Position numbers and translations under genes: made by a program. Under the pieces are notes generated by a model. That model was not told the DNA's origin. It searched no databases and saw nothing but the letters and a program-made list of their open reading frames with translations. Shown in pieces: positions 57,587 through 64,000 of a stretch of DNA of 64,000 nt. Origin of the DNA: an uncultured beta proteobacterium (GTDB lineage: Bacteria > Pseudomonadota > Gammaproteobacteria > Burkholderiales > SHXO01); the NCBI GenBank assembly GCA_963705615.1, contig CAVPKE010000004.1:414535-478534 (forward strand), given 5' to 3'. How positions within the stretch are numbered: position 1 is the stretch's first letter; each line of letters begins with the position of its first letter.

Positions 57587-59020
57587 TCAGGGGACGCGGT
57601 TCACCGGCGGCGGCGTCCAGGTGCCGTCGAGAATCGAAGGCGGCGTTGTCCTGGGCGAGTAGATTCGCAGCACGAGGTTGAACTTCCCCTTCGGAGCCGG
57701 CAACCAGTTCGCCTCCTTGTCCTTCCCCGGTGATTCCGCCTGGAGGTAGAGATCCACGGAGCCGTCCGGGTTGGTGATGAGCCGGTTACGCTGGCTCAGC
57801 TCGTACCGATCGATCGGATTCGGCGCGAAGAAGAAATCGGTGTCGTACATCGTGAGCGACCAGAAGGCTTCGGCCGGCGGCATCTGGCCCTTCTCGAACC
57901 GCATCACGTAGTTGTGCTCGCCGTTGTATTCGTCACCCTTCGCATCCTTCTGCGAGAGCGGATACACGGCGTCCTGCGGACGGTTCCAGCCGGGACCGAG
58001 GAGATTGGCCATGCCCCGCAGCCGATAGTCGGTGCCGAAGTTGCCCACGCCCTGGGTGAAGTACAGCCACCCGTCGGTCGTCTTCTGCTTCTTCAGGAGC
58101 AGTCCCATGTCCAGGAGCGCCAGCTTGGGAACGAGCTTGATCGCCTCCCGATCGAGGAACCCGAGTTTGCTCGGGTCGAAGTCCTGCCCCGGGACCAATC
58201 CGATCCTGGCCATCCGCGCGACGATCTCTGCATCCTGCGCGGTCGGCGGGTTAGTCTTCATCAGTTTTGCGAGGGTCTCGAAATAGGTGTCGATGTCCAG
58301 CGCGTTCACCTGCTTGCGCACCGCCGTCTTCATGTCGATGCTCGGATCGACGACACCCGGCGGCGGCGTGTACGGCTTGCGATAGGCGCTGAGCGGAACG
58401 ACCGAGAACTTGTCCTGCAGCGCATGCACTGCCTTGTAGTCTTCGGGCGTGCCGGTGCTGTAGATGCGCCCGAGGATCCACACCATCCCGGTGGGCGACT
58501 TGACTTGCGTCACGCCTTGCGGGAGCGCGCCCGACCAGCCTGGCCCGGTGATGGCGTACGTCTGGGGCTTGCCGCCATTCGTGCGCGAGCTTGCCACCTC
58601 GACAACCTCCGACCAGCCGTCCAGCATCGGCATGATGTAGTACCGGTCCCCCATGTCGGGAATGCTGAAGACCCACGGCTCATTGGAAACGTCGAGCCAG
58701 ACGATGGTGTACAGCGTGTCGGCATTGGGCGCGGCACAGCAGTGGTTGTCGACGGCCGGATAGGTCCGCATCTTGATCACCTGGCCCATCGGGGCATGCT
58801 CGGCATCCGGCCTGGCAACGTTGGTCTGCTGCCTGCGGACCATGTCGAAGGTGACCAACGGGTAGCCGTAGACGTATGCGTCGACGGCGATGCTGACCGC
58901 CTCCACCACGCCCAGCGACTCGGCTTCGTCCGCGCCGGCTGCGAGCGGACATGCAGCCATGGCCCCAAGGCACAGGGCCCCAAGGCAAAATGCCTTAGCT
59001 GCGCGTTTGATCGATTGCAT
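57587..59020 (-). CDS. DUF1254 + DUF1214 domain protein (cleavable signal peptide), tandem paralog
   Basis: 477 aa from ATG 59020. Same architecture as 56141-57571, with a 15-nt gap to that downstream paralog. Confidence 0.85.
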   Translation of the reverse strand: MQSIKRAAKAFCLGALCLGAMAACPLAAGADEAESLGVVEAVSIAVDAYVYGYPLVTFDMVRRQQTNVARPDAEHAPMGQVIKMRTYPAVDNHCCAAPNADTLYTIVWLDVSNEPWVFSIPDMGDRYYIMPMLDGWSEVVEVASSRTNGGKPQTYAITGPGWSGALPQGVTQVKSPTGMVWILGRIYSTGTPEDYKAVHALQDKFSVVPLSAYRKPYTPPPGVVDPSIDMKTAVRKQVNALDIDTYFETLAKLMKTNPPTAQDAEIVARMARIGLVPGQDFDPSKLGFLDREAIKLVPKLALLDMGLLLKKQKTTDGWLYFTQGVGNFGTDYRLRGMANLLGPGWNRPQDAVYPLSQKDAKGDEYNGEHNYVMRFEKGQMPPAEAFWSLTMYDTDFFFAPNPIDRYELSQRNRLITNPDGSVDLYLQAESPGKDKEANWLPAPKGKFNLVLRIYSPRTTPPSILDGTWTPPPVNRVP

Positions 59021-59124
59021 TGGTGTCCTCTGAACTGTTTTTGGCATCCGTGCGCGATCGCAGGCGGCTTTTGACCCGCGCTCTTCGACGGGTCCCGAAC
59101 GAATCGCGAGGTCTCGCCCTGCCG

Positions 59125-59986
59125 CTACTTCGGGAACATGAACTGCACCTGCACGCGCAGCTGCCAGGTCGGGCCGTTGTCGGGCCTGACGATGTTGTAG
59201 TACGCGCCGATCTGCGTGTTCATCGGCAGCGGCCCGAGGTGAAAGATGTGGCCGACACCCCGCACCCAGCGGCACGGTCCACTGGTTGCCGCTGCTGGCT
59301 TTCCAGTTGGCGGTGATCATCGGAACGCTGTTGATGTAAGTGCCGCCCGGGAGGTTGTAGTTCACGAACGGCTCGAATAAGAGGTTGTTGTAGGCGGGCG
59401 CTCCGCTGCTGGTGCCGAGCGACCACACGTTGTTGATCAGCATCCCGTAGACCCACGGGTTGTCCTTTTCCAGCCGCAGAACGACCGCAGTCGGGCCCAG
59501 CCCCCAGTTGTTGTTACCCAGCTCGCTGTCGCTATGCGTCGGCAGCTGGGCGATCGCTCCCACACCCCAGATCAAGCCCGCCGCGTTGGCGGGAGACAAG
59601 AACGCCGAGAACTGCATGTCGCCGAGGCCGAAAGCGTTGCTCTCACCCTGGACAACCGGCGGCTGCCAGATCAACGGAAGGATGGTGCGGGTGATCAGGT
59701 TCCAGTCGCTGTTGAGCGTGACCGGGACGACGGGCTGGATGTTGAGGATGTTCTGCGTGCCGCCCTGGGGACCGTAGTTGAAGTTGGTGTTGTTCTCGAA
59801 CGGGACGCTGATGAGGTTGGCCACAGGGTTCTGCGACAGCTTCGCCAGCTCCTCCTTGCTCAACTCCGCGCGCGCGGACGAGGCCAGGGCAACGGCGAGC
59901 GTGAGCAGCGCAAGCGCAAGAAGTCGAGTTGTTTTCCGCGCACGCACCGCTCGTGTTTGCCCCGACAGGGATGCGTTTACTTTCAT
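59125..59986 (-). CDS. Outer-membrane beta-barrel protein of unknown family, frame break near 59260
   Basis: Signal peptide. NPVANLISVPFENN.NF..GP. The corrected C-terminus reads ...GPTWQLRVQVQFMFPK*. The track merges it with the next gene into an 823-aa ORF. Confidence 0.7.
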
Positions 59987-60098
59987 CTTCTTTGGTCTCC
60001 GCCTTTTTTTTGGTCTCGACTCAAGCTGACGGGAGCCCGACCGGCACGGCGCAGGCACCGGAGCGTACCGGGCTTCCGTCGCTACCGCTGCGAACCAC

Positions 60099-60584
60099 TC
60101 ACGGCTGCGCCGTCACGTACACCAGGTTGTTGCCCTGGAACACCGCGCGGTAGAAATTGCCGCCGCAGTAGAAGTAGTCGATGCCGCCGACTGGCGTCGA
60201 GGTGCAGCCCGCGGGAAGAGTGGCAACAACCGTCCCGAGAGGCAACGGCTTGCCGGCGGCCACGGGCGGAGGCGGAGGCACTGCGGCGGCGGCTGCGGGC
60301 GGAGGTGCCGCGGCGGCCGGATGTGGGGCCGCGGCCGCGGGTGGAGGCGCAGCGGCGGCGGGCGGAGGCGCAGCAGCATGCGCGGCAGCCGCGCTCGCCG
60401 TGGCTGCCGTAGCCGCGCTTGCCCCGATGACCGCGCCCCTGCGGAAAGCGCGGCGCCGCACGCCGAAGATCGCGTGCGCTTCCGGAACCAGCTGGACTTG
60501 CAGCGGAACTTCAGGCGGCACATCGACGAGAAACAACAGGATGAGGGCAGGGGTGAGTATCGCAATCTTGAGGATCGTCTTCAC
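60099..60584 (-). CDS. Small anchored protein with Ala/Pro repeat linker and Cys-containing C-terminal domain
   Basis: The GTG start overlaps the DUF2092 stop (GTGA). N-terminal TM, then (A4-5 P3) repeats, then LPAGCTSTPVGGIDYFYCGGNFYRAVFQGNNLVYV. Confidence 0.55.
   Translation of the reverse strand: MKTILKIAILTPALILLFLVDVPPEVPLQVQLVPEAHAIFGVRRRAFRRGAVIGASAATAATASAAAAHAAAPPPAAAAPPPAAAAPHPAAAAPPPAAAAAVPPPPPVAAGKPLPLGTVVATLPAGCTSTPVGGIDYFYCGGNFYRAVFQGNNLVYVTAQP
60240..60420. repeat. GC-rich coding tandem repeat (about 24-nt unit, encodes PPPAAAAA)
   Basis: Iterated GCGGCGGC.GG.GGAGG.GC units on the + strand, inside ORF 60099-60584. Confidence 0.5.
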
Positions 60585-61985: not shown

Positions 61986-62273
61986 GACGTCTATGTTTCC
62001 TAAGACTTCTCCACGAGAATCGCGACAGCCTCAGGAAGCTGCGCGGTGACGCCATCGCCGGGGCTGACCCCACAAACGGCGCTCACTCCGCCTCGCCGAG
62101 CGGCCTGCACCATACCTCATCTTTTTAGACGCTCTTACGATCTTTGTCCTTGCGATCCCGTCCGACGGCCAAGCATACGCAGCGCCTCATTCGGGTCTTT
62201 GACTTAGATCAAGTCGGCCAGTGCGCCCGCATGGATGATATACGAACACCGCCGTGGAACGACATTGGGCGGC

Positions 62274-62429
62274 CTACGCACCGGCGGATGTTTGTGCTCC
62301 TTGATGACTCGCGAATTCAGCGCCCGACGCAAAAGCCTCCGTCGCAAAGCCGGCGGACGACAGCAATCGCATCAGCACGATACGGACTTCGGAGTCGTCG
62401 TCCACGACGGCCACCAGCTCGCTCGGCAT
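62274..62429 (-). pseudogene. Response-regulator receiver-domain fragment (FixJ/NarL-like N-terminus), decayed downstream
   Basis: MPSELVAVVDDDSEVRIVLMRLLSSAGFATEAFASGAEF, then a stop. Receiver-like scraps continue in other frames down to ~62100. Confidence 0.55.
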
Positions 62430-62458
62430 GGAATTTCTGCCTCGCAAGCCGGACTGCG
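62408..62458. repeat. Direct repeat copy A (27-nt identical core + 24 nt at about 83%)
   Basis: CGGCCACCAGCTCGCTCGGCATGGAAT is identical to 63904-63930. The flanks TTCTGCCTCGCAAGCCGGACTGCG and GTATGCTCGCAAGCCGGGCTGCG are similar. Confidence 0.7.
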
Positions 62459-62607
62459 TGCTCGGCTGGACCTTGGTCCAGCGTCCCGGGAACCAGTGTC
62501 GCGGGTGACTGCTGGCTGTCACGGATGCGCTCGCGCTGGCGTCGAGTTGCGCCGGGGACAGGAGCCGGGCAGGGCGAGCGTATCAGTTAGTTGTCAACAC
62601 ATACGTA

Positions 62608-63138
62608 TTGACGATTACCCATGTCTCGCGCTATTCTAAACGCGTGCGCACCACAGCCAAGTCCGATCAGCTTCAGATTCGCGTGTCACCGGCCGAGAAG
62701 GCCGCCATTCAGCGCGCGGCGCGGCGGGCCGGTATGGACATGTCGGCTTATGTACTCGCTCGGGTGCTGCCCGCTGCGGCGCGCCGTTTTCGGGATCTCA
62801 CCGAGGCCTGCCGAGATCCACAGGGCGCGCGTTTCGCGCTGGCCGAGCTGAACTCTTGGCTGGCCAGCCTCAATGCGGGCGAGCTCCGGGAAGCGGTGCT
62901 GTCGCCGCCCGCGGAGCTCACGCCCCATCTCGCCAACTATGTCGCCGCGATGGTGGAATATGCATGCGGGCGACAGGGCGTCGTGCCGCCGGCGTGGACC
63001 CACGCGATTGCTCCGCTGACGGAGCCGGTATTCGGCTCCACCCTCATGAGCCTGCGCCTGCATCTGCTCAGTCATTCGCCGCCGCCCTTCCGGCGGCGCA
63101 ATATCTTCATCGACGCCTCGGTTGGCTCCCGGGTTTGA
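62608..63138 (+). CDS. Ribbon-helix-helix (CopG/MobC-like) protein with ~120-aa helical C-terminal domain
   Basis: LQIRVSPAEKAAIQRAARRAGMDMSAYVLARVL is a typical RHH motif. The start is TTG 62608 or GTG 62644. An AT-richer upstream region contains the palindrome ATACGTAT. Confidence 0.65.
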   Translation: MTITHVSRYSKRVRTTAKSDQLQIRVSPAEKAAIQRAARRAGMDMSAYVLARVLPAAARRFRDLTEACRDPQGARFALAELNSWLASLNAGELREAVLSPPAELTPHLANYVAAMVEYACGRQGVVPPAWTHAIAPLTEPVFGSTLMSLRLHLLSHSPPPFRRRNIFIDASVGSRV

Positions 63139-63150
63139 GCTACGCGCAAG

Positions 63151-63687
63151 ATGGCGGCGCTCAGTGACACCGACATTCGCAGGCTCTTCGAGCTGCTGAA
63201 CGAGGAGCTACGCCGGTCAGATACGCAGGGGGAGCTGTTCCTGGTTGGCGGGGCCGTGATGTGCCTGGCCTATGCCGCCCGCCCCTCTACCGAGGATGTG
63301 GATGGCCTGTTCCGCCCCGCCCGCCAGGTTCGGGAAGCGGCCGCGCGCGTCGCGGTGCAGGCGGGCCTGCAGGCCGACTGGCTCAACGATGGCGTGAAAG
63401 GATTCTTGAGTGAGCACGGGGAGTACGCCACGTTCCTCGAGCTGGACCATCTGCGCGTGATGGTGGCGCAGCCGGCCTACCTGCTGGCCATGAAATGCCT
63501 GTCACTGCGGATCGGCGCGGAGTTCCACGACGAGGACGACATCCGCTATTTGCTCCGCCATCTCGATATCAGCAGCTACGAGCAAGCGGTGGCCGTTATC
63601 ACGCACTACTATCCGTTGGAGCGCTTTCCGCAGAAAACGCTGTACGCACTGGGAGAGTTGTTGCCAAAGCCAAAGAGAACGCGCTGA
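63151..63687 (+). CDS. Minimal nucleotidyltransferase-fold protein (DUF6036-like)
   Basis: 178-aa intact ORF, 12 nt after the RHH gene. NTase motif LVGGAVMCLAYAARPSTEDVDGLF (GG-x14-DxD). Confidence 0.7.
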   Translation: MAALSDTDIRRLFELLNEELRRSDTQGELFLVGGAVMCLAYAARPSTEDVDGLFRPARQVREAAARVAVQAGLQADWLNDGVKGFLSEHGEYATFLELDHLRVMVAQPAYLLAMKCLSLRIGAEFHDEDDIRYLLRHLDISSYEQAVAVITHYYPLERFPQKTLYALGELLPKPKRTR

Positions 63688-63739
63688 CGCTCGGCTTCGA
63701 GTGCGTCGGCGATGACTCGGAGCCGGCTGCTCTGGCTCG

Positions 63740-64000
63740 CTAGTGGTGATACGGGCCCGGGGGAGCCACGCCGGCCCGCTCCGCCAGCCTGACCAGATCG
63801 GCGACCGAGCGCACGCCGAGCTTTCTCATCAAGTTCCCGCGATGGAACTCGATGGTCTTCTCTCCGGTGCCGAGATCGGCTGCGATCTGCTTGTTCAGCC
63901 GCCCGGCCACCAGCTCGCTCGGCATGGAATGTATGCTCGCAAGCCGGGCTGCGCGCTTGCGCAAAATGACCGCGTACTCGTCCGGGACGGCCGCCCGCAT
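63740..64000 (-). CDS. LuxR/FixJ-type HTH domain (either the C-terminus of a regulator running off the window, or a 61-aa HTH-only protein starting at ATG 63922)
   Basis: GRLNKQIAADLGTGEKTIEFHRGNLMRKLGVRSVADLVRLA is a LuxR-type HTH. The segment before it (SMPSELVA) is the repeated sequence. Confidence 0.7.
   Translation of the reverse strand: MRAAVPDEYAVILRKRAARLASIHSMPSELVAGRLNKQIAADLGTGEKTIEFHRGNLMRKLGVRSVADLVRLAERAGVAPPGPYHH
63904..63953. repeat. Direct repeat copy B
   Basis: See 62408-62458. The copies are 1496 bp apart in the same orientation. Confidence 0.7.

Follow-up and report, generated by a model that had tools for sequence, protein, structure and literature searches.

Genes and features of the locus

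The DNA analysed here, referred to as the window, is a stretch of 64,000 nucleotides from an uncultured beta proteobacterium (contig CAVPKE010000004.1 of GenBank assembly GCA_963705615.1, positions 414,535 to 478,534 of the forward strand). Close to its right end lies a two-gene cassette encoding a ribbon-helix-helix (RHH) protein with a helical C-terminal domain (CTD) and, downstream of it, a minimal nucleotidyltransferase (NTase). A first-pass annotation of the sequence had placed two plus-strand genes 12 nt apart within direct repeats and had likened them to a toxin-antitoxin pair without an established name. Open reading frame (ORF) and repeat searches confirmed the genes, their spacing and strand, and repeats of about 55 nt with a 27-nt core, and the likeness is supported by the comparisons given below. 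The features of the cassette are as follows.

62593 to 62612, plus strand: putative 20-bp palindromic operator at the left cassette edge, GTCAACAC-ATAC-GTATTGAC (full form GTCAACACATACGTATTGAC).
62608 to 62637, plus strand: sigma-70-type promoter predicted by a promoter scan, TTGACG, an 18-nt spacer and TATTCT.
62644 to 63138, plus strand: RHH-CTD gene with a GTG start, 164 aa, comprising an N-terminal RHH of the NikA/TacA (DUF1778) type and a helical CTD of about 110 aa.
63151 to 63687, plus strand: NTase gene, 178 aa, a DUF6036-type minimal nucleotidyltransferase and putative toxin.

The palindrome ATACGTAT that had been noticed before the RHH gene is present and forms the centre of the 20-bp palindrome at 62593-62612, which occurs only once in the window. 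The family consensus of this operator is GTCAATAC-N4-GTATTGAC, from which the window copy departs by one mismatch in an arm. The exact consensus was found in 62 related loci, with one copy per locus and each copy directly 5' of the RHH gene. In an alignment of about 80 upstream regions no conservation was seen 5' of the operator, and the placement of the −35 box inside the right arm of the operator was kept throughout. The start of the RHH gene lies about 5-9 nt past the −10 box in nearly all of these loci (window 62632-62646). In the window itself the start codon follows the −10 box by 6 nt, which suggests that the cassette mRNA is leaderless or nearly so, given the presumed start of transcription.

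Cassette limits were drawn by comparison with about 85 related loci. DNA homology to L001, L002, L003 and L085 has its left limit at 62586-62593 and its right limit at 63666-63702. Judged from these alignments, the conserved unit is 62593-63702 and stays well within the repeats, at a distance of 130 nt from the left copy and 200 nt from the right. Both genes are under purifying selection when compared with seven relatives, with ratios of nonsynonymous to synonymous substitution (dN/dS) of 0.11-0.22 for the RHH-CTD gene and 0.06-0.13 for the NTase gene. Adjacent, co-oriented small genes, the first of them DNA-binding, and a palindromic operator at the promoter give the cassette the general layout of type II toxin-antitoxin modules.

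The nucleotidyltransferase

The NTase carries the pol-beta motif LVGGAVMCLAY..STxDVD (GG...DxD), the motif YLLAMKCLAxRIGAEFHDEDDxRYLL and a conserved C-terminal YPLERFPQKTLYAL. The pattern of pol-beta minimal NTases, hG[GS]-x9-13-Dh[DE]h, is present in the window protein as LVGGAVMCLAYAARPSTEDVD. Among 30 diverse members G33 and G34 do not vary, while conservation of D49 and D51 is at least 90%.

The window NTase matched the Pfam family DUF6036 (PF19502) with 19.6 bits (E 8.7e-4) over profile positions 4-62 only, the gathering threshold being 23.6, and had no Pfam match to AbiEii (DUF1814, PF08843), the family of the AbiEii and MenT toxins. DUF6036 was matched by 29 of the 30 diverse members (best E 1.1e-5), DUF2204 by eight and AbiEii by two, which reach 6e-4. 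With the PADLOC model of AbiEii, weak matches were obtained for 27 of the 30, and that of the window protein (E 0.01) covered the N-terminal 27 residues only. A tblastn search of plasmids returned 32 actinobacterial records annotated as "DUF6036 family nucleotidyltransferase", with 32-41% identity over about 80% of the length. A homologue from Tessaracoccus, 41.5% identical, scored above both thresholds, with 36 bits for DUF6036 and 28.1 bits for AbiEii (cutoff 22.5). This double match indicates, on sequence grounds, that the NTase family is a compact relative of the AbiEii/MenT toxins outside DUF1814.

DUF1814 proteins are characterized by four motifs and by toxicity that depends on catalytic residues, the C-terminal motifs III and IV being specific to them (PMC7450476). 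The K115 ... D127-D130 pattern of the NTase is a possible counterpart of motifs III and IV. Sequence-profile searches of the PDB with two NTase alignments gave no match. No mention of DUF6036 was found in the literature searched, and searches for DUF2204 and for NetFlax with nucleotidyltransferase likewise gave nothing relevant.

The partner protein and its fusions

Pfam matches of the partner protein are confined to RHH residues 6-47, with NikA-like at 7e-9 (36.1 bits, cutoff 27) and TacA1 at 2e-7 (31.2 bits, cutoff 21), which assigns the domain to the DUF1778/TacA-like RHH antitoxins. A profile search of the PDB gave weak matches to DUF1778, KacA and TacA antitoxins (E 0.006-0.09), again over the RHH part only. 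In the AlphaFold2 (AF2) model (predicted local distance difference test, pLDDT, 82.6; predicted template modelling score, pTM, 0.71), the RHH is followed by an all-helical domain. The most conserved positions of this CTD are ANYVAAMVE, P..W and chiefly SLRLxLLxxSPxPFRxRNxFxD near the C-terminus, as seen in two alignments. A HMMER scan of 1.84 billion representatives recovered 410 clusters with the CTD, nearly all of about 160-168 aa with the CTD placed after an RHH of about 50 aa, and the CTD never occurred without a DNA-binding head of that size.

A HEPN-like fold had been raised as a possibility for this domain. The corresponding explanation reverses the polarity of the pair as in type VII HepT/MntA: the toxin would be the CTD, a HEPN-like RNase whose Rx4-6H motif (RNIFID or RLHLLSH) has degenerated, and the NTase would act as antitoxin by nucleotidylating it. 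Among toxin-antitoxin-like modules with an NTase, MNT-HEPN pairs occur most often, and RHH domains are known to be fused to HEPN (PMC2701414). The helical CTD with its conserved R..RN motif near the C-terminus would fit. However, neither the four-helix fold nor the Rx4-6H motif was recovered. A Foldseek search of the partner model against the PDB found Arc repressor alone, over the RHH only, with nothing reaching E 0.001 and no HEPN. Pfam returned noise for the isolated CTD, and none of eight CTD sequences matched HEPN even with E values as high as 10 allowed. An invariant Asp stands where the His is expected after RN, and H144 of RLHLLSH, about 90% conserved, is replaced by Q, R or S in some members. 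The gene order is also opposite to mntA-hepT, and the DNA-binding autoregulator would sit on the toxin, which is atypical. Reversed polarity is thus considered improbable.

Partner and NTase are also paired on actinobacterial plasmids, in some cases as one fused protein. On the Tessaracoccus plasmid a 161-aa protein is encoded 5' of the NTase, and its C-terminal 80 residues, including the SPPAFRRRGIFI tail, align to the CTD with an hhalign probability of 92.6% (E 4e-7). On the Mycobacterium intracellulare plasmid pFLAC0070_2 (L086 1862-2941) a helix-turn-helix (HTH), the CTD (TPASFRRRGIYL) and the NTase form a single protein of 359 aa. A further fusion, RHH-CTD-NTase, is the 344-aa protein P0368. 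The fused forms imply a physical association of CTD and NTase. They could be natural antitoxin-toxin fusions or evidence for subunits of one enzyme.

Distribution and genomic context

Clustered at 90% identity, the NTase family comprises more than 7,600 clusters, and the best 120 of these are all at least 81% identical. The profile of the partner protein recovered more than 5,400 clusters. Gene order was assessed in 83 loci, three obtained by exact protein look-up and 80 from species-representative genomes. An RHH-type gene lies 5' of the NTase gene in 81 of them; the contig of L048 stops just upstream of the NTase, and L072 was left out.

Among close relatives the cassette is found in five different contexts. 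It adjoins an alcohol dehydrogenase gene in L002 and L003 and abuts a histidine-kinase remnant in L085. In L001, where it is placed at the far end of the DUF2092 operon, its neighbours are a further NTase gene and fragments of SNF2 helicase, surroundings that may represent a small defence or toxin-antitoxin island. This other NTase, directly upstream of the cassette (L001 8600-9190, minus strand), is unrelated and consists of a MarR-like winged HTH fused to NTP_transf_2/Polbeta. When the genes nearest to the cassette were collected from about 75 genomes, these 138 neighbours fell into 151 Pfam families, and no integrase or transposase was among the 25 most frequent of these. PIN toxin domains were present in five cases, and on another mycobacterial plasmid the DUF6036 pair lies between RES-Xre and PIN modules. 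Patchy distribution and variable context, as in type II toxin-antitoxin modules, were therefore observed for the cassette.

Cassettes were recovered from metagenome-assembled genomes (MAGs) labelled Betaproteobacteria, Gammaproteobacteria and Acidobacteriota. In L009 and L010, from MAGs labelled Acidobacteriota and Vicinamibacterales, the NTase protein is 83-86% identical to that of the window, and the synonymous divergence (dS) of L009 from the window, about 0.8, equals that of L004, from a MAG labelled beta proteobacterium. This likeness indicates either cross-phylum transfer or mis-binning. The DxD motif is substituted in single orthologues (QAVDAV in L021 and EDVGAL in L033), and in L008, L015 and L023 the partner gene was matched as two separate tblastn segments, which may reflect frameshifts or merely a gapped alignment. 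Such changes suggest that copies of the cassette are occasionally inactivated.

Possible function of the cassette

In layout the cassette matches AbiE and MenAT: its first gene encodes a DNA-binding protein, the operator overlaps the −35 box, the two genes are closely spaced, the second encodes an NTase related to AbiEii, the context varies, and toxin-antitoxin genes are occasional neighbours. An autoregulated toxin-antitoxin module was therefore ranked first, and the cassette would accordingly be toxic. The RHH domain would bind the 20-bp palindrome over the −35 box and repress the operon, and the CTD of about 110 aa would bind and restrain the downstream NTase. More speculatively, the Arg-rich tail SPxPFRxRNxFxD might plug the acidic DxD active site. 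Once freed, the NTase would arrest growth by nucleotidylating a cellular target, for which the 3' ends of tRNA are candidates by analogy with MenT. The RHH-CTD protein would then be repressor and antitoxin at once, and the NTase would be the toxin.

As a wider and tentative proposal, in which confidence falls somewhat short of even, the RHH-CTD and DUF6036 pair may constitute a new and very abundant family of NTase toxin-antitoxin or abortive-infection systems of soil bacteria. Its partner would have an undescribed fold and control the NTase via the Arg-rich C-terminal tail, and the family would reach actinobacterial plasmids, there sometimes as one autoinhibited polypeptide.

Several points weigh against a toxin-antitoxin function. 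Toxicity and binding are both inferred, and fusions of a DNA-binding domain, CTD and NTase fit a two-part enzyme at least as well. NTase identity across the MAGs mentioned above is 65-97% (tblastn), which is unusual for toxin-antitoxin modules. The window NTase falls under the Pfam thresholds for both DUF6036 and AbiEii, and its AF2 model (pLDDT 60.7, from a multiple sequence alignment of only 81-97% identical proteins) is too poor for use.

Alternatively, the two proteins could be subunits of one non-toxic enzyme modifying a small molecule or a protein, with the CTD as its substrate-binding or regulatory half, comparable to the helical domain of kanamycin nucleotidyltransferase or to MNT-HEPN-like pairs, and the RHH serving autoregulation only. 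This alternative draws on the fused CTD-NTase polypeptides of 344 and 359 aa, the strong purifying selection on both genes together with the high conservation across phyla, and the constant DNA-binding head of the CTD. It is nevertheless regarded as rather unlikely: no conserved neighbour gene indicates a pathway, the layout of first gene, operator and spacing is that of a classic toxin-antitoxin operon, the module occurs beside other toxin-antitoxin modules, and its nearest characterised relatives, AbiEii and MenT, are toxins (PMC7450476). If the NTase is a toxin, a compact and very widespread branch would be added to the toxin-antitoxin systems of the AbiE/MenT type. The strictly conserved 20-bp operator and the natural fusions make the module easy to test.

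Direct repeats and gene remnants around the cassette

The cassette is surrounded by the following features.

62274 to 62429, minus strand: receiver-gene remnant, 51 codons followed by a stop, with receiver homology to about codon 40.
62408 to 62462, minus strand: left repeat copy, native to a single-domain receiver gene, of which it contains the leader (about 33 nt) and seven codons from the ATG at 62429-62427 onwards.
62466 to 62481, no strand assigned: palindrome CTGGACCTTGGTCCAG, perfect over 16 bp, about 40 nt 5' of the receiver start.
63740 to 63903, minus strand: 3' remnant of a FixJ-type regulator, HTH helices 2-4 and the stop codon.
63904 to 63957, minus strand: right repeat copy, 54 nt in which the receiver leader and seven codons recur ectopically at a deletion junction in a chimeric ORF.
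63958 to 64000, minus strand: tail end of a sensor-kinase N-terminal remnant of about 70 codons in all, mostly past the window, in frame with the copied patch and the HTH.

The repeats are made up of two blocks, 62408-62440 = 63904-63936 (33 nt, 94% identity) and 62441-62462 = 63936-63957 (22 nt, 91%), separated by a 1-nt indel. They are directly oriented at a spacing of 1,496 nt and share a 27-nt exact core. A 26-nt repeat core was present in exactly two copies in the 64-kb window, with no third copy there, and 100 shuffles gave 0 matches. Outside the window, the core did not occur in 87 other fetched loci, the sole match being L084, a near-identical copy of the right end of the window.

The left copy is in its native place. 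Homology runs past both of its ends, with window 62494-62271 corresponding to L085 1706-1935 and window 62479-62312 to L089 3372-3543. The left copy had been read as leading into a decaying receiver domain, and this holds: after 51 codons a stop follows, only profile positions 1-36 of Pfam Response_reg are matched, and tblastn aligned residues 6-47 of the intact L085 receiver (121 aa) at 69% identity and nothing beyond. The 16-bp palindrome upstream of the receiver gene reads CTGGACCAAGGTCCAG on the minus (coding) strand and is kept at L085 1721-1736 and at about L089 3375-3390. It is thus shared by three diverged loci with 69-73% nucleotide identity around it, and it is missing from the right repeat copy. 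It could be a binding site of the adjacent FixJ-type regulator.

On the minus strand the seven codons ATG CCG AGC GAG CTG GTG GCC are present at both copies, as first noted; at the right copy, however, the ATG is not a start codon, and the ORF continues upstream. The right copy does run into a LuxR-type HTH, as had been claimed, with a GerE/LuxR match of 9.6e-14, but profile positions 13-57 of 57 only are covered and the first HTH helix is gone. Nucleotide identity of this regulator remnant is 86.5% to L085 (1393-1562) and 81.6% to L089 (3123-3285). The ORF is open to the window end and lacks the receiver and complete four-helix GerE HTH of FixJ/NarL regulators.

The closest database relative of the right-hand ORF is P0121 (99% identical) on the metagenome contig L084, which shares the window end at 99.5% identity and reaches 953 nt beyond it. 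An extension past position 64000 had been proposed to see whether a receiver domain lies ahead of the HTH. The ORF begins in L084 with MMGWIDIAWPMIGATSLTLGLIYLLVWVRQ (MMGWIDIAW...), the N-terminus of a sensor kinase. The kinase remnant is 78% identical to the N-terminus of an intact 739-aa kinase in L089, which goes on with ...TLRWAHVPLFF. While a tblastn search of plasmids with the kinase fragment gave no match, L089 was found by a metagenome scan. On this sequence evidence the right-hand ORF is a pseudogene or chimera.

Two other readings of this ORF were set aside. A near-gapless NCBIfam FixJ alignment had suggested a complete FixJ regulator whose helix 1 is divergent, but the kinase N-terminus lies upstream in L084 and L089. 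The residues RKRAARLAS were considered as a native regulator linker (compare RQDRAARAS of L085). Their DNA is closer to the receiver leader, matching it at 20 of 22 positions and including a CTT that the linker lacks, and they were so counted in the copied patch.

Intact relatives show how the fragments belong together. The cassette-free L089 encodes the 739-aa sensor kinase, a 212-aa FixJ-type regulator, a 125-nt spacer and a 123-aa single-domain receiver. In L085 the cassette abuts a 42-aa C-terminal kinase remnant (HATPase_c), which is followed by a frameshifted regulator and an intact receiver gene (121 aa), with the DUF2092 operon downstream. Three blocks of the window locus follow the order of L089: kinase codons 1 to about 70 (L084:788 to window 63975 = L089 433-624), regulator HTH helices 2-4 (window 63915-63753 = L089 3123-3285), and the receiver leader with codons 1 to about 40 (window 62479-62312 = L089 3372-3543).

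The earlier idea of a single FixJ/NarL-type regulator split around the module is not borne out by this comparison: the orthologue of the receiver fragment is a separate single-domain receiver gene, and that of the HTH fragment is the FixJ-type regulator upstream of it. An uninterrupted regulator in a relative had been named as the mark of an empty site, and the cassette-free locus has kinase, regulator and receiver as separate genes. A simple insertion of the cassette into one regulator is likewise rejected, as the order of the fragments is wrong.

The closest syntenic relative, L002, is without window 62265-62593 altogether. From this absence and from the receiver gene being cut after about codon 40, the signalling locus appears to be decaying in the window lineage while the cassette stays intact.

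Origin of the repeats

The flanks of the right copy are unrelated in origin, with the kinase N-terminus upstream and regulator HTH helix 2 downstream, and these lie 2.5 kb apart in L089. A three-way alignment places the switch point inside the microhomology GTGGCCG / GTCGCCG; intact relatives read ...LTARERQVLAQIVAGRLNKQ at the junction and the window reads ...SMPSELVAGRLNKQ.

Direct repeats that bracket a module at a spacing of 1,496 nt with a 27-nt identical core are what attL and attR of a mini integrative element would look like, and the first-pass annotation had proposed such an element, about 1.5 kb long and inserted into a FixJ-type regulator gene. This explanation is very improbable. 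The conserved cassette stops 130-200 nt short of the repeats, the left copy is in its native place, no integrase or other recombinase lies between the repeats, and the repeat is missing from the 87 other loci fetched. The fragments are in the wrong order for an interrupted regulator, the HTH being upstream and the receiver downstream of the cassette on the coding strand. They stem from two different genes, and the right copy is lodged between sequences that are far apart in L089. Because the repeat occurs in no other cassette locus, the att-site reading was rejected and a duplication-deletion event is supported. The repeats would accordingly be a scar outside the cassette and not the ends of a mobile element.

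The repeat might also be a conserved 5' region of two paralogous regulators that evolve independently. Receiver domains do occur in both neighbour genes of relatives, and weak receiver similarity was found between window 62430-62344 and L085 946-1032 (65.9%). The regulators of L085 and L089, however, begin MPRPIVYLVDDD or MTSLVQTPIVYIVDDD with a leader unlike that of the receiver gene, and the window copy replaces HTH helix 1 and is not at a gene start. A paralogous origin is accordingly hardly credible.

The remaining part of the first interpretation, a 5' end duplicated in a duplication-deletion event, holds, with receiver, regulator and kinase all involved. The ancestral order would be that of L089, with sensor kinase, FixJ-type regulator, 125-nt spacer, single receiver gene and operon, and in the window the cassette sits in the spacer between regulator and receiver. 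The right repeat would then fill a deletion of about 2.5 kb, in which most of the kinase, the receiver domain of the regulator and HTH helix 1 were lost. Unequal exchange at GTSGCCG could have joined receiver codon 7 to HTH helix 2 and produced a tandem duplication of 1,496 nt. The duplicated unit would consist of HTH helices 2-4, the stop, the cassette, the spacer, the leader and codons 1-7, the length of which is the 1,496-nt period. The other unit would be lost later, in a second deletion that reached from kinase codon ~70 to the first copy of the leader. A single replication template-switching event could give the same product, and the order of the steps is reconstructed from the end product.

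This reconstruction meets two difficulties. The 27-nt core is identical and yet the adjacent 28 nt contain five differences, a marginal fit to one recent copying, and no intermediate with two cassette copies was found.

For the locus as a whole, a widespread, self-contained and uncharacterised toxin-antitoxin-like cassette, together with repeats that are the scar of a local duplication and deletion, is the best joint explanation and is held to be reasonably probable. As a caution, direct repeats on either side of a small module need not be att sites and can instead be the scar that local illegitimate recombination leaves in a decaying operon. One intact relative, L089, sufficed to settle the question of the repeats.

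Other open reading frames in the window

Two further ORFs stood out on the minus strand. The ORF at window 57587-60058 encodes 823 aa, in which an N-terminal part of about 400 aa (weak Phenol_MetA_deg) is joined to DUF1254 and DUF1214. The matching region of L001 is called as separate genes, and the long ORF may be a fusion, a frameshift or an over-long call. The ORF at 60099-60584, within the DUF2092 operon, encodes 161 aa with a long Ala/Pro-rich repeat, AAAPPPAAAAPPPAAAAP, and a weak C-terminal DUF6515.

Comparison with known systems

Microhomology-mediated tandem duplication or deletion, or replication template switching, leaves scars of the type attributed to fork stalling and template switching or microhomology-mediated break-induced replication (FoSTeS/MMBIR). 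The repeats resemble such scars in the short templated copy of nearby sequence at a deletion junction, the 7-nt microhomology GTSGCCG at the switch and the direct copies 1.5 kb apart, a mechanism deduced from its end product.

With MNT-HEPN and MntA-HepT the cassette shares the combination of a minimal NTase and a small helical protein in a mobile two-gene unit. In contrast to them, its genes are in the opposite order, the DNA-binding domain is on the helical partner, and neither a HEPN fold nor an Rx4-6H motif was detected. The likeness to TacAT, KacAT and AtaRT (DUF1778) is confined to the N-terminal ~45 residues, and the role of an operator-binding autorepressor is probably common to both. 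The partner of TacA-type proteins is a GNAT acetyltransferase, whereas that of the cassette is an NTase, and the cassette protein has a folded C-terminal domain of 110 aa where TacA has a short helix that wraps the toxin.

The nearest systems are AbiE and MenAT. The cassette NTase, at about 175 aa, is about 100 residues shorter than AbiEii and MenT (about 280-300 aa) and belongs to DUF6036 and not to DUF1814, and the first protein has an RHH whereas AbiEi (COG5340) has a winged HTH, with no detectable similarity between the CTD and AbiEi domains. Both are two-gene operons in which the upstream protein combines an N-terminal DNA-binding domain with a C-terminal domain. The downstream product is in both an NTase of the pol-beta type, in which GG...DxD precedes a helix with a Lys and an acidic motif. 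The sequence links between them are weak but consistent, as seen in the PADLOC matches of 27 of 30 members and in the 41%-identical homologue that lies above the Pfam AbiEii threshold.

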